From NCBI GenBank assembly GCA_965178125.1, contig OZ237771.1:248001-312000 (forward strand): 64,000 nucleotides of DNA, read 5' to 3'. A program made the translations under genes and the position numbers. The notes beneath the pieces are model-generated. The model did not search any database, was not told the origin of the DNA, and worked only from the letters and a program-made list of their open reading frames with translations. The stretch is from Bilabrum cf. latius (Eukaryota). Below are positions 1 through 41,760 of the stretch, in pieces. Position 1 is the stretch's first letter, and the number at the start of each line of letters is the position of its first letter.

Positions 1-3000
1 CCTCGTCGCCGTGTGCTTCAATCGCTGCCAGCAGCACATCCGGCGAGCTCATGCTGTTCAGCAAAGGTGCACCACCATGCAATGCACCCGTCGAGGAGAG
101 ATCTCTGGGAGCCAGATGTGACCTGCCCGTCGATGAGGATGCGTTCGCGCCCGGTCTAGCTGCTCCTGATTTAGATGGCGAAGAGAGCCGGCCGGATGCA
201 TTCCAGACTATGGCGTTCACGCTGCTTGGGCTGCCCATGGTGGAACCGCGCCGGCGCCGCGCAATACCAGGCGAGCCACCTAGTTCCGCAAGGGGAGATT
301 GCACCTACCCGACTGGAGCGGTCATGCGGCGGGTTCCGCGGGGACCAGCGAACGTTCCCTGTCGGACACGCCCCCACGGGCTTGTGATCGCAGGAAGTTG
401 CATGCTGGTGGTATCCCGTGCACCGCCGTGCAGTGCATCAGGCTTCGGTAACGTGCCATCGCTTCCGTTGCCATCCGAGCCGCTGCCTCCGGAAACGCCT
501 GGGGAATCCCGCGTAGTCCCCGATACGGTGTCAGCGCCAGCCCTAGCTAGAGGTGCTACCGGCCGGGACAGCAGCTGCTGGGTGATGTCAGCTTGCTCCG
601 CGGAAGGGGGAATCCTGCTCATGCTCATGGCCCTGCGAGACAGCATTCCGACCCGCACGATTCCGGACCTGGACGCCGGCGACCACAGCGAAGGGGACCC
701 ATCAACGGGTATTGAACCCCGGAGGCCCGGAGAACCAGGATGCAAAACGGACTGGGGTCGGGATGCGTCTAGCTGCAGCGCAGGCGTCGAGCCAGCACGC
801 AGAAATGGCGAATCCACCCGTGGAGTTCGCACTATCGCAGCCTGGTTCGGCGTGGTCTCGCCCGCGCTGCTCCCGCTCCCAGGGCCACTATCCCTGGAAA
901 GAGCTGGTGCAAGTGCACCAGTGACTCGATCGAATTTCGAGGCATGCGCAAAAGCAATGGGAGTCGCAGCATCGCTGCCATCGGTGGTGCTTGAAGCGTC
1001 GGAGACCGAGTCCAGAGCTGCTTGTTTCTCTTCATCATCATTGTTCCCGTTAATTGGTATGGTCTTTCCCTGCTCCCTCCCTTGTCGTCCTGCATTAAAG
1101 CGACTCACGTGACCCTCTGGAGAACTGGGCTCGCCGCTCCCTGATTTGGCGTCATCACTGCCTGCACTTGCACTTGCACTTGCACTTGCATTCAATTGGG
1201 CTATCCCTCGGCGGCCGTGCGTCAATGATCCCGAAGCTGGTATCCTGCCCTTGCCTTGCTGATGCCTGTTGCTGGCGTGCCTAGTAGGACTCAGCCCGTG
1301 GCGTTCGCTGCTGCCGGCTTCTTGGTGCCTGAGTGCCTGCCTTCTATTACCCTTCCCGCTACCTCCGCTGCGAGTAATCATCCCAGCACCACTGGTGGCC
1401 TGTCGGTCCCGTCCAGGGTAAGGGGAAGGCTCGGAGGAGGACTCGGAGTCGGAAAGCGAGCCGTCGGTGTCGTCTGGTTCTCTGGCGTACAGAGGGGTTG
1501 GGGGTGCACCGCCATGCATTGCACCCCGTCCCTGCGAGTTGGCTCGTCGGGAGATGCCGCGGCTATGGCCACCCTAGTTCCTCATCGTGCCCTTGCCCTT
1601 GCCCCTGCCTTCGTCCCTGCCCCTGCCCCTGCCCCTGCTGCTTCTGCTTCTGCGTGTCTTCGATGCCCACACGTCCGCATCTAGCCCTCTCTTCAGATCC
1701 ACAGGCAGCGGCCTGGATGATAGGTGGTGAAGGGAGGAATACAGCCCAGGGCTCGTGTGGAAGTTGCCGGTGTGCGGGTTATGGCGGATGGCTCTCGCGC
1801 GCCAGTACTCCACCGAGCTCATCACCTAGCCGCGGAAGAACCGCCAGTGCGCAGAACCGTCCGGTGGGGCGTGGTGAAAGGTGCCGATCAGTCCGTTGCG
1901 GCAATTGAGAAACTGCGATGGTGGGCAAAGCGGGAGGTGGGCAAGCCGACAGGAGTGGCGCATTGGGAATCCATAGATGTGCTCCACTATGGGAAGATGC
2001 GATGGGGTATCCGTTGGTCAAACAACCCGCAAGGCAGGACGTATAATAAGTGGACCTACATGACAATGCAGCGAGCGGATGGGATATGCATCACGAAAGC
2101 AGTGCACTGTACTGCGCTGCAACCGACTCACCCCGTATACTCCCTCTCCTAGGATGCTGTCCGGCCCCCTTTCTTGTCTGTGCTGGGGCTTTCTTGCCTG
2201 TGCGGTGGGATTGGGGGCAGATTCTGAGGCCGTGCTGTGGTCGGCGTGATCGCTCACAACACCGGTTGCACTCGTCACACCAGTGTCGGCCAGGTCCCAG
2301 GTCGACACCTTGAACGTGCTGTGGCCAGGGCTCGCAGCTCTAGTGTGACGAGTGCTGCTGTCGGCAGTACTGGAGGAGGGCGCAGGCGCTGACGATGCTT
2401 TCATCAGCGAGGCCGGGCCAGCGCCAGGGGCGGGGAACAAACCGGAACTGCCTCCGGTCGACGCCATGTGCTGGTGCTGCACAACTGAAGGAGTGGAGCG
2501 GGCCGCCGTCCCACGTGCTGACTCGGTGAAGTCGTCGTTCTTGACCAAACGTGCCTGCCGGAGCAGAGCTGAAGATGCTCTTGAATCCCCGCCCTATCCC
2601 CCAAACGATGACCGCCCACTCGTCACACCGGGAGAGGCATCCTGCCCGTCGCCGAGGAGGACAAGGGGCGTGTCGGCTGGAGCCGCGGGGGAATCTCCGC
2701 GCATGCTCATCGCGCTCCCAGCCATCGAGGAGGCTCGTGCGGAACCGGCGCCGCCGTCGTCATCATAGGCCCCGTGCTGCATGCAGAAGCCCATCAGAAG
2801 AGACGGTGGTTTCGGCCGTTCGGCTGGCTCGGTCAAGGCCTACTGTTGCGCTACGGACGTTGCAGGCAGATTTCCAATCGGTGCACTAATTTGCAGATCC
2901 TACTGTTTGGTTATTTGATCTATTTGAGGCTATTTCGCATTGCTGCTGGCACTGAGTGGTTGGGAAGCTTCGTCACGTTGCCTCTGCTCGGCGGGTCGTT

Positions 3001-3436
3001 CTGCCGGTTCAATCCACTCGTTTCCATCACCGGGCTCAGCACTTGCTTTTTCATTGCACGGATAATCGTTGGCCTGAACCTGGTCGCTGTTCGGAGCATT
3101 TTGGAACATGGTGGGTGCTAGAACGGCCGATGGTTCTGCCGGACCAGACACTCCGCCGAAGAAATCAAAGCTGGGTTTCATTGCTACAATCGTAGTGCTC
3201 GCAGATGCATGCTTTAATCTGGTCTCTTCTGGCGCAGAGGTAGCAGGACTGGGCCCGAGCGTACCAGGCTGTGGCCTACCTGATATTGCATCCTACAGGT
3301 TGCTCGGTTCTTCGGACTGAGCAGGCTCCTCCGCTTTGGGCGACCCTGAAAACCAAGTAGTTGGTTTAAATGCAGGTATGTCGGATTTCTTGTCGCCGAG
3401 GCCAAGCGCTTGGGGCGAAACAAAACCATCTGACAT
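1..3436 (-). CDS. Low-complexity Ser/Gly/Pro-rich protein of unknown function; 3' end outside the window; one intron; TAG read as Gln
   Basis: ATG at 3436 (MSDGFVSPQ). ORF fragments 2930-3181, 2594-2836, 2018-2548, 1574-1825 and 305-1519 share one frame. They are separated only by TAG once intron 2131-1913 is removed. Confidence 0.6.
1913..2131 (-). other. Predicted phase-0 GT-AG intron (219 bp)
   Basis: Donor GGG|GTGAGT, acceptor CATCGCAG|TTT. Both sites are conserved in the duplicate at ~9.9-10.1 kb. Splicing removes the only in-frame TGA (2018-2020). Confidence 0.55.
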
Positions 3437-7644: not shown

Positions 7645-7852
7645 ATTGAAATGTACTGTTTCTGTATGTGCTCCAGAATGCTTCTTGAGCCCGTCCAGAA
7701 AGCAGGATACTTGAGAAGCCACTGCATTCTCGATGTGGATCGTGGTCTGATTTTGAACAAAATTGCACGTCACAAACATGAGCTGACGACGCGGAGTGGT
7801 GATGTTTAACCGATTTGCAACGAAAGGACGGAATGCTTTCGGACCAGGAGCC

Positions 7853-9789: not shown

Positions 9790-11424
9790 ATGGCGGATGG
9801 CTCTCGCGCGCCAGTACTCCACCGAGCTCATCACCTAGCCGCGGAAGAACCGCCAGTGCGCAGAGCCGTCCGGTGGAGCGTGGTGGAAGGTGCCAATCAG
9901 TCCGTTGCGGCAATTGGGAAACTGCGACGGTGGGCAAAGTGGGAGATTGGCAGATCGACAGGAGTGGCGCATTGGGAATCCATAGAAGTGCTTCATTATG
10001 GGAAGATGAGATGGTATCCGTCGGTCAAACAACGCGCAAGGCAGGACGTATAATAAGTGGACCTACATGACAATGCCGCGAGCGGATGGGAGATGCATCA
10101 CGAAAACAGTGCACTGCGATGCAAGCAACTCACCCCGTACACTCCCTCTCCTAGGATGCTGTCCGGCCCCCTTTCTTGTCTGTGCTGGGGCTTTCTTGCC
10201 TGTGCGGTGGGATTGGGGGCAGACTGTGCTGTGGTCGGCGTGATCGCTCACAACACCGGTTGCACTCGTCACACCAGTGTCGGCCAGGTCCCAGGTCGAC
10301 ACCTTGAACGTGCTGTGGCCAGGGCTCGCAGCTCTAGTGTGACGAGTGCTGCTGTCGGCAGTACTGGAGGAAGGTGCAGGCGCTGACGATGCTTTCATCT
10401 GCGAGGCCGGGCCAGGGCCAGGGGCGGGGAACAAACCGGAACTGCCTCCGGTCGACGCCATGTGCTGGTGCTGCACAACTGAAGGAGCGGAGCGGGCCGC
10501 CGTACCACGTGCTGACTCGGTGAAGTCGTCGTTCTTGACCAAACGTGCCTGCCGGAGCAGAGATGAAGATGCTCTTGAATCACCGCCCTATCCCCCAAAC
10601 GATGACCGTCCACTCGTCACACCGGGAGAGGCATCCTGCCCGTCGCCGAGGAGGACAAGGGGCGTGTCGGCTTGAGCCGCGGGGGAGTCTCCGCGCATGC
10701 TCCTCGCGCTCCCAGCCATCGATGAGGCTTGTGCGGAACCGGCGCCGCCATCGTCATCATAGGCCCCGTGCTGCATGCAGAAGCCCATCAGAAGCGACGG
10801 TGGTTTCGGCCGTTCGGCTGGCTCAGCCTGCTGTTGCGCTACCGTCGTTGCAGGCAGATTTCCAATCGGTGCACTGATTCGCATATCCTACTGTTTGGTT
10901 GCTTGATCTGCTTGAGTCTATTTCGCATTGCTGGTGGCACTGAGTGGTTGGGAAGCTTCGTCACGTTGCCTCTGCTCGGCGGGTCGTTCTGCCGGTTCAA
11001 TCCACTCGTTTCCACCATCAGGCTCAGCACTTGCTTTTTCATTGCAGTGATTATCATTGGCCTGAACCTGGTCGCTGTTCGGAGCATTTTGGAACATGGT
11101 GGGAGCTAGAACGGCCGATGGTTCTGCCGGACCAGACACTCCGCCGAAGAAATCAAAGCTGGGTTTCATTGCTGCAATCGTAGTGCTCGCAGATGCATGC
11201 TTTAATCTGGTCTCTTCTGGCATAGAGGTAGCAGGACCGGGCGCAAGCGTACCAGGCTGTCGCCCACCTGAGATTGCATCCTATAGGTTGCTCGGTTTGT
11301 CGGACTGAGCAGGCTCCTCCGCTTTGGGCGACCCTGAAAACCAAGTAGTTGGTTTAAATGCAGGTATGTCGGATTTCTTGTCGCCGAGGCCAAGCGCTTG
11401 GGGCGAAACAAAACCATCTGACAT
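9790..11424 (-). pseudogene. Truncated, frameshifted duplicate of the 1-3436 gene
   Basis: 9790-~11830 is collinear with 1781-~3840. An 8-bp deletion near 10222 shifts the frame, and homology ends abruptly at 9790. Confidence 0.75.
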
Positions 11425-20297: not shown

Positions 20298-23200
20298 TCA
20301 ATCAATAGAAGCTCCCTCCAGCTCGTCTCTTGCAATCCGCGCCGCCTCCCTCACAGCAGCAGCGGGTGCCATGGGAGCTCTTCCACCCCTGCCCACAACA
20401 AGCTCTTTGAATAGCATCCGTACCCGAGCCTGGAGCCGCTTGCCAGCCTCTGTCTCGAGCAATGACTTGGTTGGTGGTGTGGCGGATGAATCAATGAAGC
20501 CATCGGCACCTGTGCCATCGCCAGCACAAGCAACAGCACCAACGCCAGCACCTTCGCCAGTCGAGTCAGCCAGCAGCTAAGCCTTCCCGCGAATGAATCT
20601 ATTTGCATCCGATGCAAGCCGGGCAAATCCAAGCAAGGCAGCAGCACGCATCACAGCCTGTGCTATTGAACTACCATGCGGTGCATCGGGGCCGAAGAAG
20701 GTGATCCCACCTTCCCCATCGTCTGGGTTGGAGCTACGTCTCACGCTAGGACACACTCCGATGATATCGTCACATGGTACCACTGGCAACCACGCAAGTC
20801 CCCCAGCAACAGTCGCAATCGACACACACGCATCTGCAACGGCATCAGCACCTGCACCAGACGAGGCGCGATCCATTTCGCTCTCCCTTCTGCCCATCGC
20901 AAGACAGGCAGCGCTGACCGACACAAGCGGAGCTGAGACCGCCAGCACACTGCTTGGCGTGGCATCAGCCGACATTGAGGCAGAACTATCGCGCGCTGCA
21001 CCAAGCATACCAGATGACGGTATGCCTTCCACTGCCGTAGTGTGCGACCAATTGTTCATGCATGGGTGTGACGAGAGCAGCACAATCTTGTGCGGCGTTG
21101 CGTTCCTCGGCCCAGCGCTGCTTGGCACACGAACATCCTACGAGTAGCGCGGTACATGTGACGATGACACCTCTCCAGTGCTGTCAGCACCATCACTTGG
21201 TCCAGACCTCTCGTTCTCGTGCACTAACCTGGCCAGCGGCATGCAGCACGAAGCGGCCAGTGCCATCCCTCCTGGTTGTGAGAGGTCGGCTGAGCATGGC
21301 AGGACTGTCACCCAGGCGGTCTTGATGAGTTGCTCTAGGCCGCGTTTGGCGCCTGGGCCGCATGATATGAGTGTGGCGAGCATTGGCTAGCCCATGGTCA
21401 GCACTGTAGGGGCGATGAGATCAAATGCGGGCGAGCTTCCCCCTGCTCCACCACCGGACCCAGTCGATGCTGCTCGCGTGGAACGAGAAGTGGGACCAGC
21501 GGATGGACTTGGGATCGCTGCATCGGCTTCATATTCGGCGTTCGATGCAGAGGGCCTTGCAGGAATGGTGCCTCCGAATAGATCCGCCATGCCTTGTGCA
21601 GGCACGGTGGTGGCAACCGCGGCAGAATCACCGCCAGTGCCGACAGCCCCGGCTGCAGGTGTATCGCCAGCGCCCGTCTCACCCTCGGTCTATCCCTCAC
21701 GTGCTTGCACCCATGCCAAGCTACAAGAGTCATCAGCTGCAGTCCGGCAGGCGTCCAAGAAGGATATCAGCTTGGAGTCTCGCGCGTGCTTTGCGGCTGC
21801 TGTAGACCCGTCATTGACGCTCGCGAGCCATAGCCAGTTGTACTGTTTCTGCTGCTCCTGCTGCTTGTGGTCATGTCCGTTTGTACTCCTCTTGGAATCA
21901 GATACAGAGCTAGGCGATACTATCGCTGTGCCTCTGCCCGGCTACCGAGTAGGAAAGCAGCCGAGCATCCCAGGCCCCAGTCGAGCGATCCCGGCGGCAC
22001 CTGGGGGCAGCATGCCAGCGAGTTGAAGATCAACCGGTGGATCCTATACACTGCTTAACTCGGACCCACTAGCTGAGTCTCCTGCCGCCACTGCACCGGA
22101 TGACCAGGCTGAATCACCTGGGTATCCGAATGGGAAGGAGGCGTCCTGACGGGCAGCGCGAGCCTTGATCGTGGAGACGTCCTCGATGCACCGCCAGAGA
22201 CAACACTCGTCACACCCGACCGCAAGTTCGCCGGACTCATCCCTGTCAATGCAGCCGGATAGCCACAAGTGCCCGCCTGCGACTGCAACAGACACTGTTT
22301 GCTGGCAATCGATGCCCGCCACACCGGCAATCGGGCGCGCCTGCCAACCGCCCAATCGGGATTTGGACGGTTGCTTTCCATCCGGTGTGACGAGTGATCC
22401 TGTCGCGCGAGCAATGGATGTCGCCGTGGCCTGCAGCAGCCACACCACGGCACCAGTACTCTGGGGAACATCACTCATCACACGCCCAGTGACCGCAATC
22501 ACGGTGGCCGAGTCTGGGTCTGATGCCAGTGCGACGATCCGATGCCCGGGCAGCGGCCAGGGCTCATCCTTCATGAAGGTTCCCTGGGAGGGCCTGGCAC
22601 CTCGTAGTGATCCGTGCTGGGCTTCGGCTGGTTCGTCGGTACTCGTCACACTCTCTAGCTTCATACCAGCCTGTTTCCACACGGCTGCATCGGCTGCGGT
22701 CCGGTATCGGAAGCAGCGCAGCACCGTCATCCTCGACTCACTCGTCACACCCTCCGCGGCTCCTATGCCGGAATCGACCGATGTCTTGCCCATCTGCCCC
22801 AGTAGCAGCACCTGCTCGCGCTCGTCACACCCACCCCGGCTAGCGCCGCTCCCACCGGCAGATCCTTTGCTGCTGTCGATCACCCCAACGGCGAGCTGGT
22901 GACCCTGCAGCCCAGTGACGCCGGTAATGCCGATGACACTGCCGGGCAGAACAACTCCATCCGCACCTCTGCAGTGCAATGCACCCATCGAGCACTCCCT
23001 CATCGCCTTTCGGACCGCTGGATCAACCATCACCTTCAGGTGCCGGAGCGCCGCACCAGCCCTGGCCCTGGCGTCTTTTAGCTTTTTTTGTTTCTCCGGG
23101 TCCGTTGGAGACTGCGAGGACGAAGCTGACGATGCGGCGGGCTCATCCGAGCCGGGTCCGCTGGTTTGGCCACCCTTCGATTTGCCACCATCGCCGAGTT

Positions 23201-25146
23201 CGCCACGGGCCATCCTCCACTCGAGGCTCCCACTCGCCCTGCCGTGCCGCTCAGCCTCCGTCAGCTAGCCAGCCGCACCACCATGCGATGCACCGGTCTT
23301 CTTGATGATCTCCAGAGCCGAAAACCAGTCGGCCGCGTGGCGTGCCGATCGGAGCAATGCCTCATCTTGCGCTCGCCTCCAGCGAATGTAGGAGCGTCTC
23401 GCTGGAGTCACTGGCGGCAACCTAGCCGTGCGGTCCTGAAACTCGGAATGTGCACGCAACAATTGGTCCAGCCACGCCTCGGGGACGCCGTACCTGTCGT
23501 GGTTCCTCCTTCGCTCCACCACTTCGCCCATCGCTCGGGTGTATCGCATTGTCACGTCCTGCACCTCATCTCTGCCGAACGCAATCACAAAGTTGAGTTT
23601 CTGCGAAGACAGGGAATGGAAAGCAAGCTCGATCAGACTATATATTATAAGCAGCGATCGACTTCTCAATACTTAAGCTAAGCATTGGTGAGTGCTTGGG
23701 GTCCTGGCAAGGCATTGAGTGCCGCTTGCTCAATCGCTGATCGCACCGATCTGGCACCCGGCATCGTGCAAGCTGGCTTACGACAACGTGCGAACGGTGC
23801 AGACCAACAAACAAACCAATCCGCCCTATATGTACGAGTAAAGCATTAGTCGCATGCACATAACATCTAGCTTACCTTGCCCCAGCCCTGCTCGTACATG
23901 AGCGGGCTATCTGACGCTGCCTCGGCTGGATCGCAGTGCACCCATCTACCCGGCTGCGGCCCAGCGCTATCTCCGGGCGCCTTCCCCACCACATCCAGCC
24001 ACACCTCGCACCACACGTGGTCGGTGAAATCGACGATGTGGCGGGTATCGAACCCCAGGGAGGAGAGGACCAGAGAGAAGCAGTTGGCGTACTCGCCGCA
24101 CCTGCGCATATAGGACGAGTAGCGCACCAGCAAGTGGAGCAGTGGCACAGCACGCTGCAAACGAAGTGGCCTCATACAGAATGCAGGCAGAACTTTGAGT
24201 ACATGGGTTCCATTCCGACTCACCTGCCGCGCCTTGTCTCGAGCAATTTTGCCGGATCGTTCAGGCGAGGAAATCGCGTGACTGCACCGCACGGTGGGCT
24301 GCCTCCTGGTGGTGACCCGGCCGGGCTCGGCTTCCTGCCCTGGCACTGGTACAGCTCCGTGATTCCGGCGCCGAAGGAACGTTCCTCGGGGTTCGGCGCG
24401 GTCGCGCCCATGCCCTTGGTGGGGGCCCCGCACTGGTCGCAAGGCGGCTGGTTGACCCACTTGAAGAAGTCGTGCTTGAACCAACGGAGAAGCTCGCGAA
24501 GCAGGCAGTAGCGGAACGTGGGGTGCGCGGCGCCGCCCGTGCATGGCTTCTCCGGGCGCCGCTTCGTTCCGTTGGTCAGCTACAAGTCGGGCAGGGGCCC
24601 GCACGCGTGTGACGAGTGCGCACCGTCGCCGGTTCGCATGGCGTCCAACATGGCTCCCATGGCTTTGGTCGCAAGGCTCAAAGCGGGTATCTTATCCCAG
24701 ACGGCCGCCCGCTTTGTGGGATCATCGTACTGTCGCACTGCACGCGCGGCTCCCTGGACCCTTCGAATCATCTGCTGTGCTCGCTCGCCGACGGCTGGCG
24801 GCTGGTTCTGCAGATGGACCGCGGCTGTGAACATCGCCTGCTACAGGGCTTGAGCCTGGGCCTGCATTCCGAATTGCGAGATTCCATCGAAATCAGGGAC
24901 GTCAATGCTGCCGGAATGCCGGCCCTCTGCCACCGTGGCTCGCCCCCTGAGGCTGTGCAACAGCCAAGCGTGCACGTGTTGAGGAGTGCCAGGTGGCTGC
25001 GCATCAGGGCCACTGTTGGTCTTGAGCGACATCAAGTACGCTACAAACTTTTCATCAGTATTGATGTGGCCATCCGGTCCGATTATAACCTGCTATTCCT
25101 GCCCCACCCCAAAACACGATTCAAGCTGCATTGCAAGAATATCCAT
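20298..25146 (-). CDS. PNG1: Peptide:N-glycanase (transglutaminase-like core) with a long C-terminal extension; 2 introns; ~1480 aa if TAG=Gln
   Basis: Motifs LLRWFKHDFFKWVNQPPCDQC, LLETRRGR|CGEYANCF, DHVW, WVHCDP and GWGK|KLNFVIAF..VQDVT.RY; Cys-His-Asp triad intact. The start codon is uncertain. Confidence 0.85.
23601..23875 (-). other. GT-AG intron (275 bp)
   Basis: AAG|GTAAGC ... TTCGCAG|AAA restores the canonical GWGKKL motif. Confidence 0.9.
24102..24223 (-). other. GT-AG intron (122 bp)
   Basis: AG|GTGAGT ... TGCGCAG|G restores the catalytic GRCGE motif. Confidence 0.9.
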
Positions 25147-25500
25147 GCCTCCATCAGGGTCCACCTCCAAGCATGCTCTGCGATTCAATAAATATAAATA
25201 TTAGCAAAACAGTATTATTAGGTGACCTCGAATAATGCCTGATCATGATTCTAATGTACACCGCGAATGATACGATAAATCCTCACACTACACCCTCATA
25301 CAGGACGTTAAATGGAACGTCAGACATGCTTAACAAGTCAACGACTAGATCGAGACTCCTCACAGATTATTTTAATTTGCCTGCAAGTATTACGACTGTG
25401 ATCGCGCACGTTATGAACACGTGATCGTTCTGTGAAGTTTGCTCGTCACACCGGGACCTTCTTGGCCAACCACTGGCACCGCTGTCGCCTCCCCCCAGGT

Positions 25501-28500
25501 TCACTTTCCGCCACTCAACCACGGCGGCACATCCCTGACCTCCCCCGTGATCGCATTCCTGTAGACCACCTTGCCCTTCTTGCCCTTCTCCTCCCTCCAG
25601 TTCCTGGGGTCGAGCGAGGGGTCGGCCTTCCTCGACCTGCTCTGGGACCGCTGGTGCCTCGCAACCGCCGACCGAGAGGCGCCGCGGCGCCTGCCAGCTG
25701 CTCCCGCATCCGAGTCATCGCTATCATCGCCGTCGGAAGACGACCCGGAGTCGTCAGAGGAGTCATCATCGTCCTCTGATTCGGATGCGTCGCTATCCTC
25801 ACCCGACGATTCGGAGTCGCTGCCACTCGAGGAATCCGTGGACTCGGAATCTGATTCCGAGTCGGATCGACTAGGGGCCCGTGGCACGGTTGGCGCCACG
25901 GGTGCTGCCTTGGTCGCAAACGATGGCCTGGTGGAGCCCCTGTCAAACCGCTTGGTCGCTGCTTGGAGTGGCGTGAGCACCTTCGGTTCCGGTTTCTTGG
26001 GTTCCGGTTTAGGCTCTGGTTTAGGTTCCGGCTTGGGCTCTTCTCGCGGGGGCGCCTCGGGCTTGATTTTCGGAGCTACTGGCCGGGGCGGGGCCTGTGG
26101 CTTGGCAGGCTCCGGCTCCGGCTCGGGCTCGGGCTCGGGCTCCGGTTCATCTTGGTGTTTCTTGTCTTCATCTTGTTCTTTCTCCTGCTCGCTGTCAGAC
26201 CCGAACTCTGCAAATCCATCCCGCCGGAATGTCTCGTACAGGCGCCTTCGCTCGACCTGCACCCATCTCCTCCACCATCCCTGAATGCACATGGCAGCGA
26301 CGTGATAGGCAGGCCTCCGGATCATCAGAGCCTCCGCCCAGCGCGCCGCATCAAAGGCACGGTCCCTCAGCTTGGCCCTGTTGTACTCTTTCTCGTCGTC
26401 CAGATCGATCCCCGCCATGCGAAGCGCTTCGGCGTCTGCTTCTTTGGCTCGCCTGCCGTCATTCCCACCGGCTGCGGTTTCGCGGTATACGAGGTACGGC
26501 CTGAGGACTCGTTCAATGGGCGCGTGGGCGGCAGCTCGCCTGCGGATCCCGAGGACGTGCCGCAGCTCTGCGTTCATCTGCGGGCTGGAACGCAGCATGA
26601 CACTGGACGTGCGGTAGGGGGGGCACCGGGGGGGAAACACCTCGGCAAATATACCGTGATACCCTTTCCCCGCAGCGTCGTACGCTTCCTGTCGGGGTGC
26701 CAGCTTCATAGGCCCGGATAGGGGCCAGTAGAATTGGTCGGGTCGCCGCCAAGGTGCAGCCCGTTGCAGTGCATCCTCGTCACCGTGGTATGAGGACACG
26801 GCTGTGTCAGCTGCCTGGGCCTCGTCAGCCTCGCTCGCGCGCTGCTGGCTGTAGGGTCCATCGATTGTCGAGCTGGATCGCCTTCGGTCATCGATAGCAA
26901 CAGCGGGGCTGATACCTCCGCTTGTCGTGTCTGGCGCTGCACCTGCCAAACCCGTTGCACCACCCGTGGCACCACCCGTTGTACTTGACTCAGTTGCTGT
27001 CCCAGAGGTGCCGTCAGCACCTGCTGACGCCTTTCCTGAGCCTGACTCTCCTGACTCTTCACTCGTCACACCATCGCCCGTCACATCCTTCCCAGCCGCC
27101 CACAGGCCAAGGGAAGTGGATGGCTCGACAGCTCCGCTGCCGACCCGACCGATCTCCACGTCATCAATAACTTTCCCGGAAATATCTTGGACGCTTCCTG
27201 ACACCTGCGTCCCGCCGCTGAACATGGAGGCCCGCTGTCTGGCAACGAGCTGCTTCCTCCTGGTCATGTCCCGGAGTGGCCTCGGGATCGCACCCGACTG
27301 CCGTAGGGTCATGCCTCGCTCCACCCAGGCACACCCAGGACCCGTTAGGTCGCTTAACCATACCTAAAAGCAGTCTGTGTTGTGGTACACCACGTCTGTT
27401 ATGCTGGCGCACGGATAGATCGCTGCGATTCCCTTCCTCGGTCGCAATATAAACTCCTCTTCCTCCACGGTCCAGGTCAGCCGAGGTCGCCAGGATCCGG
27501 GCGCAACGGCTTTGGCCACCTTAGCCCGCATGGCCGCGTCTCGTTTCCGCCGCTCTGCCATCATGTCCGACCGGTTCATAACGACAGAACCGCGCAAGAA
27601 AACAGGCTCTGAGCTGTTCCCATCGTCTCCTAGTCCGCCGTTTGCAGCGAATACGGGCCGAAGCTGGGACTCACCGGATGACTTATGGTCCCCTGCATCT
27701 TCGTGCAGTGCATCTATGCCATCCACCCCGAGCCCAAACCCATTCCCAATGACACTGATTGAACCATTTCCAGCATCAGCACCAGCATCGGTACCAGCAC
27801 CAGCACCGGCACCGGCCGCAGCAGGCAACAGCGCCATCGTACCCCTCCGCTGCTTGCCCGGGCTCCTGGTCCTGGTCCAGCCCTCCCCTTTGGCCACCTC
27901 TGCCAGGCCACCGTCAACTACACCGGTGGTTCGGAAGGCCTTACCGTCCGGCACGATTGACCCCAGCTTCAGATCCGATGCTGCCCCCAGACCCAGACCG
28001 ACCGCGCCAGCCCTGCCCCACGCACTGAGGGCACCGACACCCGCGCCTATGCCGGCTCCTGTTCCGCTAGTCGCTGACCCTAACCCAGAGCCGAAAACGC
28101 TCCCAGACTCGTCGCTGCCGTGTGACGACAGGCTATGTCCGGTTGCAACAGACTCGCTTCTCGACCTGCCGGAAAGAAAAGCACCGATGGAGCTGCGACG
28201 GAACCGCTTCCTCCACCTCTCCAGCCGGTACACGTTCGGTGACGTTAGCGACGGTATGACGCCGGTGTCGGCTGCCGTGATGGGTGCCTACTGCTCACTC
28301 GTCACACCGGAAAGGTCTAGGCAAGGGACCGGCCCCGATACCGCCCCCCAAGTGCCCGCGCCGGAGCCGGAGGCCCCGCTGGCATTCTGGTTCCTAGCCC
28401 GCTCCCGCTCTGCTACCACGCGGGCGGCCTCCAAAGCACTCAGCGGCTTCGATGCCATTTCCTGTCCACCGGTGGATTCTTTAGAACCTCCCACGGCTCC

Positions 28501-31500
28501 GTCTGCGCCCTCCCTGTCACCAGGAGTCTCAGCGCCCAATGGATCCGGCAGCAGGGGTGAAGCATCGCCCGAGTCTCTTGCCCCTGCCCCTGCCCCTGCG
28601 CCTCGCCCACCCTAGTCGCTGAAGGAGACCCTGCTACCAGCACCACCATGCCGTGCATGTCCTTTGCTTGCCATGTCTGCACCTGCGCCTGCGCCTCCAC
28701 TGAACGAAATCCTGTTGGAAATCGAGGCAGCCGATAGCCGCTTCTGCCCGATCAGATCCATGGGGTTGGAAGGACCCGAAAGGGAGCTCCTCTTGCTATC
28801 GCTTTCACTCAACATCCTGGTTCGCTTGCGGCCCGAGCTTCCGATGAAAATGCCGGATTTTCGGAGCGTGGCTCGCCTTTGAGACTCGTTTCTGGCTGCC
28901 CGCAGCACGGCCGCGGTCTCATCCGCGTGCACGCCCAGAGACGGGGTGCGCGAGCTGTACACCGCACCCGGCGCGAATTTCGCTAGCAGTTTCTGGTCCT
29001 CTGCCTCGTCGCTGTCGCTGCCTCCTGCGCCCGTGGATCCTGTCCGGGGCGTCGATGTGCGGGGCGACGATGACAGCAGGCCGCGCGGGCTGGTGCCGGC
29101 GCTCGCGCCGCTGCTCAGGATCCCGCGGGAAGCAAACGCGCCGAGAGCACTCCCGGCCAGCCCGAGGCGCGCCGTGTCCCTATGCACCCCGATACCCAGC
29201 CTGTGTTTTGCCAGCCTCCTGCATGCCTTCTGCACCCGCTGTGCTATCACTTTCTGTTTCTGCACTTCGTACTGCCTGTACATGTCCATGTAGCAGTCCC
29301 TTGCCGCCAGCCACCCCGCATCCGAGTCTTCGAATTCGACAAGGAAGTACAGTCCCAGCAGAAAGAAGCGCGGTGCCCAGCCGCTCTCCACCCTGGATGG
29401 ATCCAGCCTCACCCGGCCGTCCCTTCTGCTCGCAGGACCCACGGCGCCGCCTTGCTTCTTCAGCTCCTCTTTTTCCTTACGGGCCTGTTGGATTGCGTCC
29501 GTCACGCTGCCACCAGCCGCAGCCGCCATTCGGAGCGCAGTGGATGCGCCGTCATCGTCCCTGTCATCGTCAATATGGTCCTCCAGCCCGATCACAACCC
29601 TTCTGACCCTCCCTGGCGCACCAGGGGCCACCTGATCAAGAGCCCTTGACACGTCAGAATGCGTGAATCGCTCGTTGTCACCTGCCTTGACCGTGGCCAC
29701 CACGCGCGAGTCTGCCGCCGCCATGTCGCTGGGGGCAATCGGGTCTGTTTGGATTTGGGCGCTGGGCAGGGCCGGAGGTTTCAGGGAATACACGGAGGAA
29801 CGTTCGTCCTTCCGGAGAGAAAATTCGCTGGCCATAGGCGGCGTGGTCACCGCCTTTCCTGCCTCGGGCCCAGCCCCTGACGATCCACCGGTGGATTGCC
29901 GCCCGTAGGCGTCCACGATCGCCCGATCCGCCTAGGTGGTTCTATGCAGCACCACCAGTGCAACCTTGTAGTACTCTTCCGCGAGGTTCCGCACCTCATG
30001 GCGCCGCGCATGCTCATAGGTTGCAACCGGCAACGTTCCGTCCGGCCGGCACCCTCCGCCTAGCCCCCTCATGCTGCCACCATAGCTGATACCTCCAGAC
30101 CCGAGCAGAGCAGGAGTACCCGGGCTGATCGTCCCGGCGACCTCGCCGGACCCGAATGCTGCCGACCCAGTTTCCGCACCTCCGACTGCAGATCCAGCAA
30201 CAGACCTCGTGCCGGCAACGCTCGACCACTCATCCTCTTCTTCCGAAGAACTGGACGATGAGCCTGATCGCCCTGCCCCCTTCTCTTTCACCTTTTTCCT
30301 TGTCACTGTCCTCTTGTGCAGGATACCTAGATGGAACGGGATACCCAACCTACCGATCGCGTCCCAGCAGCACTGGTACGCCGCTCGTCGTCTGCGCGCC
30401 GCCTGCACCGCCCGCCACCTCAGCACAAAGGAAAACACGATCTGTCTGGCGATGGGCTCCTGCGCTGCCCTTCGGATCTCCTGCACCCAACGGGCAGCCA
30501 CCCTCGGATCCGGAGCGATTAATGGAAGCACGCGTCCCGTGGTTGCAACGATCTCGAAGCAGCACGAGTGCTTCTCCATAGCCCGCTCGGACGACATCGC
30601 GGGCCCGAACCCAAACAGAGACCACCAGCCGGGGTTCTCGTCGTTTTCATCTTCTTCTTCGTTCTGGTACCGAGCCAGGGCGTGTTTGGCCAGGGCTGTG
30701 TTGGCGCCTGCCTTGGTCAAGGAGGCGCCTATGCCCACCCTGCTGTCAGATCGGGCCCGCGGCCCTGCTGAAGATGAAGATCCAGATCCACCACCAGCCC
30801 CGCCACCAGATGCACTCGTCACACCACCAAAGCGGACCCTGCTTCCACCGCCCTGCTACCGCTCCTCCTCTCCCACGGAATCTCTCCTGATCTGCTCCCG
30901 GATGGCGGTTGCTGCCCCTTGCGGAAACGTCTCGCTATCCACAGGCGCCGTCTCGAAGGCGGCCCGCAGCCGCCGCCGGGCCACCCTCTCACTGGTGAAG
31001 CCCACCCTGCGGATCGCAGTGAGTGGTATGCTGCTGATGCTTCCCTTGGCTGCCTCCATGGATCCCTCAAACCAGAAGATTCCCTTCTCGTGCGCACTCA
31101 GCACAAAGCCGACGTCGTGCCTCCAAGCGTATCCGGACTGGCTATCTGCTACGCTCAGCCTACCACGAAGCCTCACCCCACGCTGCAGATTTATGCCTGA
31201 AAATATTTTCAGGTCTCTTCGGAAATACTGTACAACGGCCGACATGCCTGCGCTCTCGGCTGCCTGCAGCGGCGTGAACTTGTCTTTAGAAGTGGACCAG
31301 AGGTCTATATCGGCCTGGTTGGCGAGCAACTTGACTACCTGCGGCATTATGAGTGATAAAAACGCTGCATACACCATTTGATCCCAGCTCTATGGCGATA
31401 ATGCTCGACATAGCAGTGCGCAGTCATAGGTAGCAGGCTTGCAGCTGCCAGCAAAACGAGCCAGCGCAATGAGCAGCCGATGGGCAACAAGGCGATACAA

Positions 31501-32226: not shown

Positions 32227-34656
32227 TCAGATGCCTTTTGTCTTCATCTTCACCCCGCGGCTCTGCAAAGACCCAGCGCCTGGAACCCTTCTCCCCCCTT
32301 TCTTCAACCGATACATGAATCCAGGCAGCCGAAGCTCCTCACCGGGAGCAGCCGTCAGCAGGTTCAAAGCCTGGCGAGTGAACGGACACATGCGGCGCCT
32401 CGTCAGCGATCGGCGCCCTGTTGTCACAGACATGCCATCACTCGTCACATCAGAGCTACCATCTGCTGCCCCAATACTGCCCAGCCCTTCTTCGTTCCTA
32501 TTGGTACCCAGCTGAAGCCCAGCGATGCTCACCCCGCGCTGCAATGCAATGCCTGCGGGACCCTCGGGCTGCGCCTTTGTCTCTGCTGCTGCACCGTGCC
32601 GGGATTGGGACTTGCCTCCAGGTGCATGGGCCGAGACTAGTCCTGGCTTGTCCGCCCCGGCTACGCCGACCGTGCTCTGCTTGCTCTTTGGACTTGAGCC
32701 CTTCGGAGGCGATGACATCGCCCCCCCCTGCCCTGCCTTTCCGGTGAGCCTTCTCCACCGATGCATCCTCTGCTCCTCCTCCCTCTCCTTCTGGATTCGG
32801 TCCATCTTCTCCTGCTGCATGCGGCGGATTGTCCCCACCAAGGGGCCCTCGGGGATATCCCCCCCCACCAGATCCAGGTCGGGCTTCCTGACGCCCTCGT
32901 GCACCACTGCCTCCGCCGCGATCCTGTACGATTTCCCGCTCTGATGCTTCTCCCGAATCCACTCCTCAAACATTAAAGGGGACTCAACGGTCCGCAGTTG
33001 CCTGCGGATCTGCCGCGCCGACTGCCGCGGAATCCCGCCGTATCCATACAGTAGGTGCGAACCGCGCGACGGGTCCATAACCTCCTGCTGATGCTCCTGC
33101 TCCTGCCCCTCTGTTGCACCAGGCTGCCCCACATCTGGTTTCTCCCCATCACCAAGCACTATGATGCCCGGCAGGGAGATGGGAGAGGAGCTTCGGCGGG
33201 CCATGACGCTGCCGACCGATGGACGAAACGAGTCGGATGCTGACGAGGCAGACGAGGCGTGCGAGGTGGAGGAAAACACAGAGGTGGAGGAGGAGTACGA
33301 TGTACCGCGCCTCTTCCGCTTGCGGGGCGGCCGTGACAGTGCACTCCGGGGCTGTGGCAAAATCCCGATGGAGGTCGCGATGGCTGCGCTCTCGGGACTC
33401 TTCGGAGTTAGCCGCTTCACGACCTAGGCACCGCCGCCCATGCTGCGCACGGAATGCGCGCCGCTTGCGGTGGCGATGGGTGCCAGTCCGGCGGCAGCAG
33501 CGGCGGCGGCCCTCGATTCCGGATCCATGGTCCACTGCTCAGGGGGGACGTACCACCGGCCGTACTGCGGGTTCATTTTGGCTCCGGGTCGTGCTCCGGA
33601 TCTCCCAAGCGGTGACGAGTGTGGCGCGGCATCCTCTCCAAGTCGCGCGTTGGAGTATCTCATCGGCGGGAGCTTGTTGTCTCCAGCTACAGTCCCCCCA
33701 GGCACCCTCTGCAGCCGCTTCGAGTTCTGAAACATCTGGTCTACGCTTTGCGTGGGTCGCGAGCGCATCCCGAGCAGATGCCTGATGCTTGGGTCGTCCC
33801 TTTCCTCCAGGGCAAGCCTGAGCTGCTCCTCCGTGATGCTCTCCTCGCTCCCTGCGGAACTTACGGATGCGCGGCGCCCGTCGGGCGGCGGCTGCTTTTC
33901 AAGGTTCCGCTGCGAGGCTGACAACCCCTGCATCGCTGCGGCTGCGCTGAGGATACCCGCTGCCGCTGGGCCCCCTTGCTGGTTGTTCTTCAAGAGCAGC
34001 TGCTCCTGCGCTTGCTTCTCGCTCTCCCTCACCAGCACCTGCTTGGCCCACTCGGGGCGGTCTGCTGGGGACAAGTCAAAGGCTGCCCCGCTGCCGGGTG
34101 TGACGAGCCAGAGAACCTTCATCGAACGTTCGATGGCCTCTCGGGAGGTTGTGTCTGCGGGGAGGCCGCCTTCTTCGCCCTCATGCTCCACGCCGATGAA
34201 GCGAGGTATGCATGTTTTCGCGGCCTCTGTGCCTTTGTTCACGATGCTTGCAGCGGTCGGGCTGCGCGCACGTCTGCTTGCGCTTTCGCGTGGCGACCCG
34301 CCGGACAGTTCGGCTGGCCCAACCGCCACCGCCACTGCCACTGGTCCGTTAGCAGCTCCGTAGGCAGCTTCGGGAAGGGCGAATGGCTCCGCTTCCAGCT
34401 GGGACGCCAGCAACGCGACTGGACCGGATTGGATCGGCTCTGGTGAGCTACTCTGTCTTAGCGTAGCTTCCAGCTCTGTAATTTCTCTTGCAATCGCAAA
34501 GGATGTTGTGGCATCCTCTACAGACGGCTTGGTTTCGGTCTTGGTGTCGCCAACTGCTTTGACCAGCCCGACTGATGCACGTGACTTGAATACTCCAACT
34601 GGCTTATGATTCTCTTTCACGAATTTCCAGTTCGACTTGTCGAGAGGCCGCTTCAT
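32227..34656 (-). CDS. Hypothetical ~809-aa protein
   Basis: ORFs 33424-34656 and 32227-33420 are in frame and separated by one TAG; ends at TGA. Contains an NPQYGRWYVPPEQW motif. Confidence 0.65.
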
Positions 34657-35464
34657 GTCCGAGCTTGCTAGGCGTCGCCGATCAGCTCCCGACTCGCAGG
34701 TAGCGCAATTCGTACGACACCTCAGCAGAGCAATAATAATGATAAAAAATTAGTCATTGACCATGTGCCAAAATACAATCCTGACGTAATTTAGTTATGA
34801 TGTTCCTGCTGTTGATGGCGCCAAACCAGGCATTATGAGTACATTGCGACCGCGGCAGCCCAGTGACGGCAAGACCAGCGACGTCAATCTTTGCAACATG
34901 ATCATTCCACCATTCACAGCCAGCTCGCGAGAAAACGCAGCACGTATCAATTTAAAGTTTGTCGAGAGCCATTCAAGTGATGCTGCTGTCAGTAAATACA
35001 GGTATAGCTACGGAACGCAGTCCTTGGGGCAAGCAGCACCGAACCATCACAGAAGGGAGCTAAGAATGGGTTGTATGGCTGCTAGAATATAGATCATGTA
35101 TTTCATAGGATCACCTGTTGGATCAAGCTCGCGCTCTCACTGCACAAACTGGCCCGATATCACAGCAACAGCCCTGCACACCGGCATCCAGTTTCAATTA
35201 TATTCTTGCATTTCATCTGCACGATGATATGGCACAATGCCAACAGAGTGTGATAGCATAAATGGTAACATACCCATCCAATATAAGCATACAAACGTGC
35301 AATATCGCACGGATTGAACTCGACGCGTCGTTTTGGCATCGGCACTGAAGTGTGACGAGTATTCACTCATCACATCGAGGTGCCAAGCAAGAACGGATTG
35401 AAACGATCTTCAGTGTTCGCTACAACAGCAAGAGCGTCGATACAATTATAGCGTTGGCCCAAAC

Positions 35465-38400: not shown

Positions 38401-40853
38401 CTGACAGAGTTGGTATCAACAAGCGACAGATGCGGGGATTCGCAGAGGGGCTCGTGAATCTGGGTCACCGCGTCTTCTCTGTCAATCTGCAGCGCCCATT
38501 CACGACGGACCTGATCGCAGGCGCCGCTGCCTGCAACTCGGCGGGGCAGATCATGCCGCTGTGGGGCGAAGTGACGGTGTTTGAAGCACTTCGGCCGTAC
38601 TTCGACTATCTCCGTGAATCAGTGGAGCTCGGGAGCTCCCAGCTTTCGCAGCCGTACATTGACTCCTCCGGTCTTGGCCTCATCATGACGGCCTCTGCAC
38701 CGGTGTACGTGAACGGTGACTTCCAAGGCATCGTGGGAATCGATGCCACCCTGCAGGAGGTTGAGAACGCGCTGATCAGCCAGAAGTGGGGAACAGTGTA
38801 CGCCTTTTTAATCAACGGTGAGGGGCGGGCGATCGTGCACCCACTGTTGCGACCATCCGATGAGCTGACGTCAGACCCGATCTACCCAGATGTGGCCGAG
38901 CTGGAGGCCGTGGAAGGGACGCCCCAATTCGACGCCTTTATGACCCAGGTGCGCGCGCCAATGATCGCCGGAACCACTGGACAGGCCTCGTTGATCAACA
39001 TGAGGAGGCGCCTGCCGAAAGGCGACAAGCTCGACGGTGAAACCGTGGCCGTCCGCAACCAGACGTACTACTTTAGCAACATTCCGGGGACGGAGTTTTC
39101 CTTTGCGTACGTGTTCCAGACAGGCCTCGACGACGATTTCCGGGTACCAACAGAGACGGGCCCTGGTAACATTGCCAAGCTAGACGCAGCTGGCGACGAT
39201 TTTTACCACCGGCTAGACAAGTACACGGCAACTGACTCAGGAATCCCGCAGTCCCGATTGACGGATCTCGGCGCCGAAACCCGGCCATCCAACGACCGTC
39301 TCTACCCCGGTCTCGAGATCAGCACTCGTCACTCCACCTACAAGCTGGCCCCATCTGCGTTCTGCCAGGCCGAGGAGTACATCCTGGACACGAGTGCCGA
39401 CGGGTCCTTCGGATTTATCGACGGGTTCATGCGAGCGGACTACACGAACTCAACGGGAACGTACCCTAACCCGGGCTGCGATCTGGCGAACTCGACCGTG
39501 GTGATCCAGACGGGGGGCTCTGAGCCGGCGAGCGAGACGTTCCGCACCCAGCTGCAGGTCAGGCCCGACGTGGAGCTGACTCACGCCGTTGATCCAGCAT
39601 GGGTGGCCACTGCGAGCGGCGAGGGCGCCGCCACTGACGTGGTGTGGAGGTACACGTCCACCGTGCAGGGCGTGTTCCGCATCTACCCAGGCACGCGCAT
39701 GCCGCACCGGTTCAATCCAACGACCCGACCGTGGTTCCAGCGAGGCCTGTCGAGCAAAGGCAGGCTCGCCCTTACCACACCCTACCTCGACGCTGCGTCT
39801 GCCCAGCGGATCAGCACGATCGCGTCCCCTGTTTTCGCAGGGAGGGGCACGACCGACCTCGAGGCATGCTCGAGCGGTGCAAGCTGCGAATCCGGGTACT
39901 GCTACGACGGTTACTGCGCCACCACGCAGATCGAAGGCGTGGCGGGGATCGATTTCCTGTACGAGGACCTGCAGTCATCGCTGGCGACTTCCATGGGTGA
40001 CTGGGCAAGGCAGTCCCAGCTCGAGTCACGGGGCTGTTTCCGGAGCTATGACTGTCCCAGCGGCTGGTTGGACGGTGCCACGAGCTGCGAAACTCAGTGC
40101 TTCCTCGTTGACAGCGCTGGCCTCCTCCAGATGGACCCTCTCTTCGTTGAGGTGCAGGCAGCCGCGGAGGCCGAGTACTCCAGCGTGAGCTTGGGCGAGA
40201 GGGCCGGGCCGGTCATGCTGGACTTGCTGCGGCGCGGGTTTGCCAGCCGGGTGGATGCGATCGACTATCAGGGAACATGTACCGTGACGAGAGAGGAGGA
40301 GCGAGTGCCGGTGACGCTGGAGGGTCTATCCAAGTCTGCGGCAGAGGCAGATGCGTTTGCGCGGACCAGGGGCGATTTCGCGCCGTATGACAACACCTTC
40401 GGCTGCGTGCAAAAAGTGAGGTACATGCAGGTGCATCGTGATGCAGTGGACGCCGAGACTGACGGCGTGGTACGCGGCGACGTCCGGACCAGCTGCTACC
40501 GCGGGGAGTACTATTTCGTACCTCTGGAGGGCGTCGATTCATTCCTCCTCGTGGTGGAGAATGCCGCTGAGGCCAAGCCGGTCTTCCCGCTGGCATGCCA
40601 CGTGGATAATCATATCGCGGTGGCGAGGCAGACGGGCATCGTGAATCAGACCTGCGCAGACGAGGGCGACCAGGTCAGCTCTACGCAGAGCAACAGCTTC
40701 AATCCCACGTGCCCTGCCGGTACTTCGTACTCCATGCAGTGCCAGTACTCGGGTGACGGAGCGAGTCGGGGTGCAGGGGCGGTGTCGGTCGCGCTAGCAT
40801 CGATCTTAGCATTCGGGCTCATGGTCTTCGCGGGAACCCATCAGGATCCATGA
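35465..40853 (+). CDS. Secretory protein: 2 folate-receptor-like Cys-rich domains followed by a VWA + Cache (alpha2delta/CACHD1-like) module and a GPI-like tail; 1 intron, 1 TAG
   Basis: Signal peptide MFVLVVLASLAGLAWA; CC...C..C.PCS...C...C...F..C pattern twice; YNPLTRPWY, KDVVILLDCTRSM, PYIDSSGLGLIMTASAPV and FNPTTRPWF. TAG at 35964-35966 lies directly before ATG 35967. Confidence 0.88.
35672..35762 (+). other. GT-AG intron (91 bp)
   Basis: CCG|GTGAGT ... CATCGCAG|CTG gives ASPLKTRDNDC, which aligns with APPQLRGGTPDC in the second domain. Confidence 0.85.
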
Positions 40854-41545
40854 TTGAGACTCCGGGGCTGGGTCTTGTGCGGATGCCCCCCTGGTATATA
40901 TGATTCACTGCAAATATGGCTGGATTGCCTGCGCTCCGGTGTGACGAGCCATTGCGCAACTAGTACTGTTGGCAGAGCGGAGCGCAGAACAACCATGTAT
41001 CGATGTGTCAAGGCTTTAAAGCAACTTACAAAATCCATCATCACATCCGATCTGTAAAGATCTATCCCACTCATAGTTGGATCCGGATGCCGGATCCAGC
41101 GGGCCAGGGTACTCTGGAACACCTGAGACATCGTCATCTCTTGATCGACAGAATTGCCACTCGGGTCCACCAGGAACCCATTCCCGCTGACGAAGCACCT
41201 CTTCGCGATCGCCTCCATGTCTTCAGGATCTTGCTCAGTCTTGCCTGCGCTGATGGCCACCTGATGGCATGCCTTGCGATCCAGCACGATGCTGTACGAA
41301 TGGCGCGGCGACACCTGCATGGCGATGGGTGCCAGCAGCTCGCTCACCCTCCTTGCCCACTGGTCGATGAAGCTGCCCTGCGTGTCCTCGTCCTGCGTGG
41401 CGCTGACGAGCCCTGGCTCGCCCCCTTGCACCACGATCTTGACGTCTCTCACAAGAGAGGCAGTGCGGCTGGATTTGGAGTTGGACCACGAGGCCGAGAG
41501 CTCCACGGCTTGCTTGCCACCGCTGGCCGCGAGGTTGCCCAGCAT
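40841..41545 (-). pseudogene. Truncated/chimeric first copy of array gene M
   Basis: Matches gene M from MLGNL to SQVFQ (~41114), then runs into unrelated sequence and overlaps the 3' end of the upstream gene by 13 bp. Confidence 0.7.
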
Positions 41546-41745: not shown

Positions 41746-41760
41746 CGATTGAAATCTCAA

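Follow-up and report, generated by a model that had tools for sequence, protein, structure and literature searches.

The question raised by this locus is why one short, exact word should recur throughout the genes of a eukaryote. The locus is a stretch of 64,000 nucleotides from Bilabrum cf. latius (assembly GCA_965178125.1, contig OZ237771.1, positions 248,001 to 312,000 of the forward strand), hereafter the window, and the word is the 10-mer CTCGTCACAC. Exact copies of CTCGTCACAC or its reverse complement number 20 in the window, each at the coordinate listed for it by the original prediction, a note made from the sequence alone that had counted about 20 occurrences (17 without a duplicated segment) against about 0.1 expected. 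The word is a DNA-level signal that is exact, strand-symmetric, clustered, filtered by protein constraint and common to unlinked loci. It could plausibly be the site of an abundant sequence-specific DNA-binding factor acting on chromatin or transcription units, a reading that we hold tentatively and under which the word would be maintained through recognition of its exact sequence. Its extent is unusual: a 13-mer at approximately one copy per 2.5 kb, mostly in genes, in a eukaryote.

Setting aside the copies in the duplicate arm leaves 17 independent copies of CTCGTCACAC in about 43.6 kb of unique sequence, corresponding to a density of 0.39 per kb. The expectation is 0.13 in dinucleotide shuffles (largest count 2 in 100 shuffles), and Markov models of order 0-3 predict 0.08-0.11 copies. 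Synonymous-codon shuffles (n = 2000), which cover eight coding sequence (CDS) segments with 8565 codons and retain TAG as a codon class, give a mean of 0.33 and a maximum of 3 copies against 11 observed, with none of the 2000 shuffles reaching 11; a plain codon permutation of CDS segments gives a mean of 0.043. Dinucleotide-, Markov- and codon-preserving nulls therefore all fall short of the count by more than 30-fold. A match with a codon- and dinucleotide-aware null, which the original prediction had named as a possible refutation, was not found (11 versus 0.33; 20 versus 0.13).

In an alignment of the 17 copies, information is confined to 13 positions, (C)(A)CTCGTCACAC(C), also written (C)ACTCGTCACAC(C). 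The word hence consists of ten invariant and three semi-conserved positions, is asymmetric and sharply bounded, and its flanks show no conservation above background outside the 13 nt. A tandem or protein-coding repeat was rejected on the same grounds, as there is no information outside the 13 nt. The 13-mer CACTCGTCACACC differs from its own reverse complement and is thus non-palindromic. Ten independent copies are on the plus strand and seven on the minus strand, intermixed and with no clear polarity in this local test of 64 kb. Exact forms are found 17 times versus 0.1 expected, one-mismatch forms 5 times versus 3.4 expected, and two-mismatch forms 51 times versus 41 expected. The word is nearly all-or-none: exact copies are in excess, and one-mismatch forms are near chance. 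The exact copies and the variants considered here are listed below, with the open reading frames (ORFs) of four genes denoted A (peptide N-glycanase-like, PNGase-like), B, C and D.

2269..2281, plus strand: exact 13-mer CACTCGTCACACC; antisense in a minus-strand ORF, read GVTS.
2342..2354, minus strand: CACTCGTCACACT; sense in the same minus-strand ORF as the 2269 copy, read TRHT.
2617..2629, plus strand: exact 13-mer; antisense in the duplicated minus-strand ORF, read GVTS.
10263..10275, plus strand: duplicate-arm counterpart of the 2269 copy, 92% identity.
10336..10348, minus strand: duplicate-arm counterpart of the 2342 copy.
10611..10623, plus strand: duplicate-arm counterpart of the 2617 copy.
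21065..21077, minus strand: CTCTCGTCACACC; gene A (minus strand), sense, read SSH.
22204..22216, plus strand: exact 13-mer; gene A, antisense, read CDE; start of a cluster.
22384..22396, minus strand: exact 13-mer; gene A, sense, read LVT.
22472..22484, plus strand: variant CACTCATCACACG, CpG to CpA; gene A, read RVMS.
22640..22652, plus strand: TACTCGTCACACT; gene A, antisense, read SVTS.
22739..22751, plus strand: exact 13-mer; gene A, antisense, read GVTS.
22819..22831, plus strand: CGCTCGTCACACC; gene A, antisense, read CDE; end of the cluster.
24606..24618, minus strand: CACTCGTCACACG; gene A exon 1, sense, read SSH.
25440..25452, plus strand: TGCTCGTCACACC; past the TGA stop of gene B (minus strand) and antisense to it, 36 nt inside the end of a contig of run X5.
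27060..27072, plus strand: exact 13-mer; gene B CDS, antisense, read GVTS.
28296..28308, plus strand: exact 13-mer; gene B CDS, antisense, read GVTS.
30813..30825, plus strand: exact 13-mer; gene B CDS, antisense, read GVTS.
32439..32451, plus strand: variant CACTCGTCACATC; gene C CDS, read DVTS.
34097..34109, minus strand: GGCTCGTCACACC; gene C CDS, sense, read LVT.
35349..35361, minus strand: TACTCGTCACACT; spacer of about 116 nt between the divergent genes C and D.
35364..35376, plus strand: variant CACTCATCACATC; inverted relative to the 35349 copy and 2 nt apart from it.
39323..39335, plus strand: variant CACTCGTCACTCC, a one-mismatch form at 39325; the only near-copy in gene D.
40938..40950, minus strand: GGCTCGTCACACC; 85 nt past the TGA stop of gene D, antisense; also within a possible convergent ORF (40844-41872).

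The variant at 32439 contains the 9-mer form CTCGTCACAT at 32441, as predicted. Also predicted was the absence of exact copies from the 35.5-40.9-kb gene and from a tandem array. There are indeed none in 35967-40853 or in the array; given that the array contributes only some 4.4 kb of unique sequence, its lack of copies is not significant.

Contigs from four sequencing runs of three studies bear on the reality of these copies. One run (X1) is DNA-like and three (X5, X6 and X8) are spliced, and their contigs cover the copies over 21001-41000 and show no letter differences at them. The word is therefore not an assembly or adapter artefact, a concern raised in the original prediction. An origin of the pattern in chance, in coding bias, in an intron signal or in misassembly is extremely unlikely, given the deficit of all nulls and the occurrence of the word in unrelated metagenome contigs. 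The intron variant draws on the resemblance of the word to an extended branch-point/3' splice motif, with an AG often found 3-15 nt after it. A branch-point/3' splice signal was rejected: the ends of the four introns seen in spliced contigs are all away from copies, and the contigs continue through the copies without a break. Rfam and tRNA scans found nothing.

With respect to genes, 14 of the 17 independent copies are located in coding DNA, in a region that is approximately 85% coding. Eleven reside in the well-supported CDS of genes A, B and C, and three in the duplicated minus-strand frame that is open in both duplication arms. The remaining three are the copies past the stops of gene B (25440) and gene D (40938) and the copy in the spacer between genes C and D (35349). 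The expectation that copies also occur between genes thus holds for the C/D spacer; copies are found in a stretch resembling an untranslated region as well. The coding copies are read as follows.

G/S-V-T-S: antisense, phase 1, 7 copies.
C-D-E: antisense, phase 2, 2 copies.
L-V-T: sense, phase 0, 2 copies.
S-S-H: sense, phase 2, 2 copies.
T-R-H-T: sense, phase 1, 1 copy.

The readings VTS, CDE, LVT, TRHT and SSH given in the original prediction are each found in the translations. Coding copies occupy all five stop-free frames, the sixth frame containing a TGA, and single transcripts carry copies in both orientations. Failure of the codon null, the use of five frames and of both strands, the non-coding copies and the presence of the word in independent contigs all agree with the DNA-level signal originally proposed.

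Protein-level filtering of the copy positions is visible nevertheless, in the frame bias and in the lack of copies in family-matched genes. The 12.8 kb of CDS in two genes coding for protein kinases with armadillo (ARM) repeats, an FG-GAP gene and an alpha2delta-like gene contain no copy, whereas genes A, B and C, with 12.9 kb of CDS, contain 11. ORFs bearing copies are either without a family match or lineage-specific where the copies sit. For example, homologues of the translated gene A exon 3 cover only approximately the first 190 residues, and the six copies of this exon fall beyond; the relatives of the stretch with the six copies are self fragments only. An all-against-all search with the exon 3 translation yielded TAG-truncated self fragments, a relative of the PNGase core that is 78 amino acids long, and distant PNGases. 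With gene D as query, the homologue search recovered no protein other than the query, and with a piece of gene B it gave no match. The original argument that protein selection offers no explanation consequently stands insofar as a codon-aware null fails, and has to be qualified insofar as 7 of the 14 coding copies read G/S-V-T-S and none is found in family-matched genes.

A pattern of this kind is also what a word without any function for its host gene may produce. A sequence-specific repair, recombination or gene-conversion step that favours the exact word could drive its spread, as for uptake sequences or HIP1; the word would then build up wherever protein selection permits, with no function for the gene that harbours it. 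We consider such a self-propagating or bias-driven word possible, if somewhat doubtful. Several observations argue for it: the share of copies in CDS is that of a word spreading in proportion to a region that is mostly coding; the coding copies extend over each of the five stop-free frames but favour the benign GVTS reading; copies are absent from the family-matched CDS and frequent in genes A, B and C; and exactness is near all-or-none, with an inverted pair between genes. According to Findlay and Redfield (PMC2817400), uptake sequences are likewise distributed over frames with a bias and favour poorly conserved genes and positions, as the word does. Several other observations argue against it. 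Copies of the word are strongly clustered, there is no excess of near-cognate intermediates, and the presence of at least three enriched words fits a set of binding sites better than a single drive. In contrast to the clustered word, uptake sequences and HIP1 are fairly evenly spread. We know of no process of this kind in eukaryotes, which also counts against a drive. It is conceivable, though we regard this likewise with some doubt, that the exact 13-mer, perhaps as a member of a small word family, represents a eukaryotic counterpart of uptake or HIP1 words, in a host in which only UAG is reassigned; a sequence-specific bias of repair or gene conversion would then spread it in coding DNA and keep it exact.

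The clustering of the copies is pronounced. Five exact copies and one variant lie within 630 bp (22204-22831), as the original prediction had reported for the exact five (22204-22830); among 20000 random placements, 0.1% had five copies within 630 bp, and 0.3% had six gaps of at most 300 bp between copies. Inverted pairs are formed by the copies at 2269 and 2342, which bound 86 bp, and by those at 22204 and 22384, which bound 193 bp. The only intergenic instance is itself an inverted pair (35349/35364) in the middle of the C/D spacer. The segment 1780-3648 is duplicated at 92% identity, and its duplicate carries the copies at 10265, 10337 and 10613. The three copies are unchanged in both arms of this 8%-diverged duplication, an under-powered comparison with an approximately 10% chance of no change in 39 nt. 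Exactness together with the unchanged duplicate copies suggests that the sites are maintained.

Inverted pairs may also be left behind by mobile elements, and the copies might be solo terminal inverted repeats or subterminal transposase-binding repeats. Such relics would be in line with the pairs at 2269/2342 and 22204/22384, with a nested arrangement in one related contig (L038, see below) and with a 16-bp array element of other metagenome contigs that shares the 10-mer. Several superfamilies of DNA transposons have ends that start with CAC, as does the word. This origin is nonetheless quite unlikely: conservation stops at 13 nt, no target-site duplication was found, the segments enclosed by pairs are dissimilar, most copies are unpaired, and copies reside inside long ORFs that remain open. 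A miniature inverted-repeat transposable element or terminal inverted repeat was accordingly rejected as a candidate (unrelated flanks and enclosed segments, no duplication, mostly unpaired copies).

The orientation of the copies relative to transcripts bears on a further explanation, namely an RNA-level element GGUGUGACGAG in mRNAs that serves as a site of an RNA-binding protein or as part of a 3'-end signal. Of 16 independent copies in an ORF or just past its stop, 11 share the GGUGUGACGAG orientation, including both post-stop copies, which lie 36 and about 65 nt short of where spliced contigs end. Against an RNA element, five copies are oppositely oriented within the same transcripts, contig ends cannot define RNA ends, and internal copies are not associated with contig breaks. 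The orientation bias follows from frame tolerance, since one antisense frame has a TGA and the GVTS reading is benign. We therefore regard an RNA-level element as unlikely; a signal in DNA rather than RNA is indicated because both orientations occur within single transcripts.

The word is not restricted to this locus. Metagenome contigs were scanned for two copies of the word 60-90 nt apart, a criterion that yielded at least 118 loci. Among the matches listed, most consist of an unrelated 16-bp array unit, CAACTCGTCACACNGT, or are simple two-copy matches. (G)CACTCGTCACACC is present on both strands and between unrelated flanks in four contigs of one metagenome (L038, L077, L101 and L113) and in L097; these five contigs have 54-63% GC and no nucleotide similarity to the window. 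In L038 (2-2887), one frame extends over 962 codons, six of them TAG, and its codon usage is that of the window. Beyond the pairs used for selection, these related contigs hold four further exact copies in 25.4 kb, and in frames with a positive codon score four of four copies read V-T-S. Clusters are found here as well, with 4 copies in 530 bp and 3 in 250 bp, and the copies of L038 are nested (+ + - -). Unlinked contigs of the same lineage hence share the word, which serves as a lineage marker, having recovered unrelated same-lineage contigs from metagenomes. Scans of viral contigs returned only tandem repeats with conserved flanks, or nothing, and a scan of prokaryote genomes returned two tandem-repeat loci with conserved flanks.

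The CAACTCGTCACACNGT arrays are found in L012, L013, L020, L051, L061, L082, L123 and others. These contigs are gene-poor, with approximately 42% GC, and the arrays are arranged head-to-tail as well as inverted. The unit contains the 10-mer of the word and looks like transposon subterminal repeats of another organism.

Further words are over-represented in the window. In unique sequence, (T)GCGCGGCGCC has 6 copies versus 0.125 expected, with one-mismatch forms at chance, and the palindrome GGTTGCAACC is found in each divergent spacer of a gene pair that makes up the tandem array.

GCGCGGCGCC: 253, 3597 (the same as 11585), 24524, 30000, 32074 and 33868; mostly CDS.
GGTTGCAACC: 41672, 46002, 50370, 54739, 59065 and 63388; divergent spacers of the array gene pairs.

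The heptamer GCGGAAC is often located 4-9 nt from GCGCGGCGCC. In the 25.4 kb of related contigs, including L101, there are 9 copies of GCGCGGCGCC, 4 of which lie in a 500-bp segment of L077 (2224-2731); the 11-nt form TGCGCGGCGCC is found only twice in the other 558 kb of contigs examined. The palindrome is additionally present at 30019 in gene B, 8 nt from a GCGCGGCGCC word, and occurs twice in the related contigs (25.4 kb) versus once in the other 558 kb. Both words are enriched in the related contigs as well. GGTTGCAACC looks like a bidirectional promoter element. This lineage has at least three over-represented exact words, with (C)ACTCGTCACAC(C) as the strongest, and the three enriched words together look like a lexicon of binding sites.

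We favour, tentatively as stated above, a site for a DNA-binding factor, on account of the footprint-like size of 10+3 positions, the clusters, the inverted pair in the C/D spacer and the two companion words. A candidate factor would be a multi-finger or Myb-type protein that may act as a general regulatory or boundary factor. Selection for binding would keep the 10-nt core exact, and selection on proteins would limit sites to non-conserved stretches and benign frames. With approximately 85% of the DNA coding and spacers of just 50-230 nt, most sites would have to lie within coding sequence.

A number of observations weigh against a binding site. Between 20.3 and 41 kb, 11 coding copies in approximately 17.7 kb (0.62 per kb) compare with 3 non-coding copies in approximately 3 kb (about 1 per kb), a density close to that of coding DNA, and no preference for spacers or promoters is clear. 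Among the gene starts examined, the word is present only at the C/D spacer and absent at gene A, gene B, the two kinase-ARM genes and the FG-GAP gene; gene starts and transcript ends are here deduced from contig ends alone, and such ends are a weak hint. No fixed distance of copies to any feature was found. In addition, a selfish or drive word may give the same pattern of frame bias and non-conserved genes, as it does in bacteria (PMC2817400). Within 60 nt of the copies, no co-occurring word was found. A core promoter element or a gene-specific factor site was rejected: CDS holds 14 of the 17 copies, no examined gene start other than the C/D spacer has a copy, and graded weaker variants are lacking. 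Either a binding site or a drive would be of use if true, as a very dense binding-site system in a compact genome or as a new sequence-drive system.

How the word relates to known words and sites can be stated family by family. Bacteria are known to have exact words of very high abundance within coding DNA, among them uptake sequences, HIP1 and Chi, and the origin of these words is debated. To our knowledge there is no nuclear eukaryotic case. None was found in the literature either: sequence strings matched only primers or unrelated papers, judged by titles and among the 20 of 101 matches listed, and descriptive terms matched nothing; the same searches returned no description of the word itself, in agreement with the original statement that none was known.

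The uptake signal sequences (USS) of Pasteurellaceae and the DNA uptake sequences (DUS) of Neisseria resemble the word in that they are exact, of approximately 10-12 nt, at least hundred-fold enriched, found on both strands and common in genes. Inverted pairs of uptake sequences are found between genes as well. They differ from the word in that the host here is not bacterial but a eukaryote with spliceosomal introns, the copies are clustered, and at least two other words are enriched. A frame bias and a preference for poorly conserved genes or positions are further shared traits (PMC2817400).

HIP1, an 8-bp palindrome of cyanobacteria, is similarly a very abundant exact word of coding and non-coding DNA that occurs in several frames, at a density of the order of one copy per 1-3 kb. 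In contrast, the word is 10-13 nt long, non-palindromic and part of a nuclear genome, and the host is not a cyanobacterium. Chi and KOPS are likewise short exact words tolerated in coding DNA. They are read by DNA-processing machines and are strand-polar with respect to replication, and RecBCD and FtsK are bacterial. The polarity implied by the Chi analogy of the original prediction is not seen (10 plus and 7 minus copies, in a local sample of 64 kb). Sites of Reb1, Rap1, Abf1 and CTCF share with the word an asymmetric form of about 10-15 nt, clusters and both orientations, and the instance in a divergent promoter spacer adds to the likeness with general regulatory factors. Those sites are degenerate and concentrated in nucleosome-free promoter and terminator regions, whereas the word is mostly in coding DNA and has an exact core. 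Finally, the subterminal-type CAACTCGTCACACNGT arrays share the 10-mer, both orientations and local clusters; the word however occurs as single copies with unrelated flanks in ORFs, whereas the arrays consist of conserved 16-bp units, head-to-tail, in gene-poor DNA. In function, the word would appear to be most like the genome-wide words of bacteria, yet it fits none of the tested families fully.

The host DNA is that of a eukaryote. Its proteins are of eukaryotic type and include the two protein kinases with armadillo repeats, one FG-GAP protein, the peptide N-glycanase-like protein of gene A and a VWA/Cache/folate-receptor protein of 1628 amino acids that resembles calcium-channel alpha2delta. 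Cluster searches in the Atlas yielded only generic kinase and alpha2delta-like clusters. Four GT-AG introns are skipped by contigs of X5, X6 and X8, namely 23601-23875, 24099-24220, 31337-31626 (minus strand) and 35671-35761 (plus strand); the X1 contig reads through all four stretches. Judging from gene-sized contigs that break in spacers, X5, X6 and X8 are probably cDNA-derived. The run-type labels give these three only as guessed RNA, with X5 also labelled "probably DNA". The value of approximately 85% coding refers to summed CDS coordinates over 20.3-41 kb.

TAG is read as sense and TGA and apparently TAA as stops, so that a reassignment of UAG only appears to be in place; this makes the lineage of interest in itself. 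Single in-frame stops between adjacent high-scoring ORFs were TAG in 15 of 15 cases examined, several of them being the same array position copied. Ten frames with a total of 9866 codons contain 36 TAG, no TAA and no TGA, with a CAA:CAG ratio of 80:284, and frames end in TGA or, in some cases, TAA. If TAG is read through, gene B becomes a single frame of 2022 codons (25504-31569) that matches one spliced contig, and spliced contigs continue through in-frame TAGs. Database proteins of the same organism are truncated at TAG, and alignments of ARM-repeat and kinase paralogues place E, K, D, Q or S opposite TAG. Examples of in-frame TAG on the minus strand, within 5425-63296, are the following.

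27364-27366, minus strand: in-frame TAG.
29932-29934, minus strand: in-frame TAG.
30856-30858, minus strand: in-frame TAG.
33424-33426, minus strand: in-frame TAG.

A reassignment restricted to UAG is rare among eukaryotes, according to two reports (PMC5304391, PMC11687900).

Other features of the window concern genes and repeats. Two paralogous minus-strand genes (5425-7884 and 16507-20301) encode kinases fused to armadillo repeats with tandem units of 126 nt, the second with approximately 15 units. The tandem array (41114-64000) has a period of approximately 4368 bp, each period comprising two divergent genes, one of about 840 and one of about 478 codons, that contain in-frame TAG and lack a Pfam match. 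At about 22455 in gene A, the database protein P0004 is identical over 250 residues and then follows another frame of the same DNA, and therefore reflects a 1-nt difference between two assemblies, either error or polymorphism. At 27671-28337, a (CCAGCA)n-like low-complexity stretch, each of the four runs shows a spike in summed contig depth (578-3943), and many short joints link 27770-27824, 28579-28599 and 33082-33106. These spikes and joints are therefore attributed to genome-wide simple repeats.

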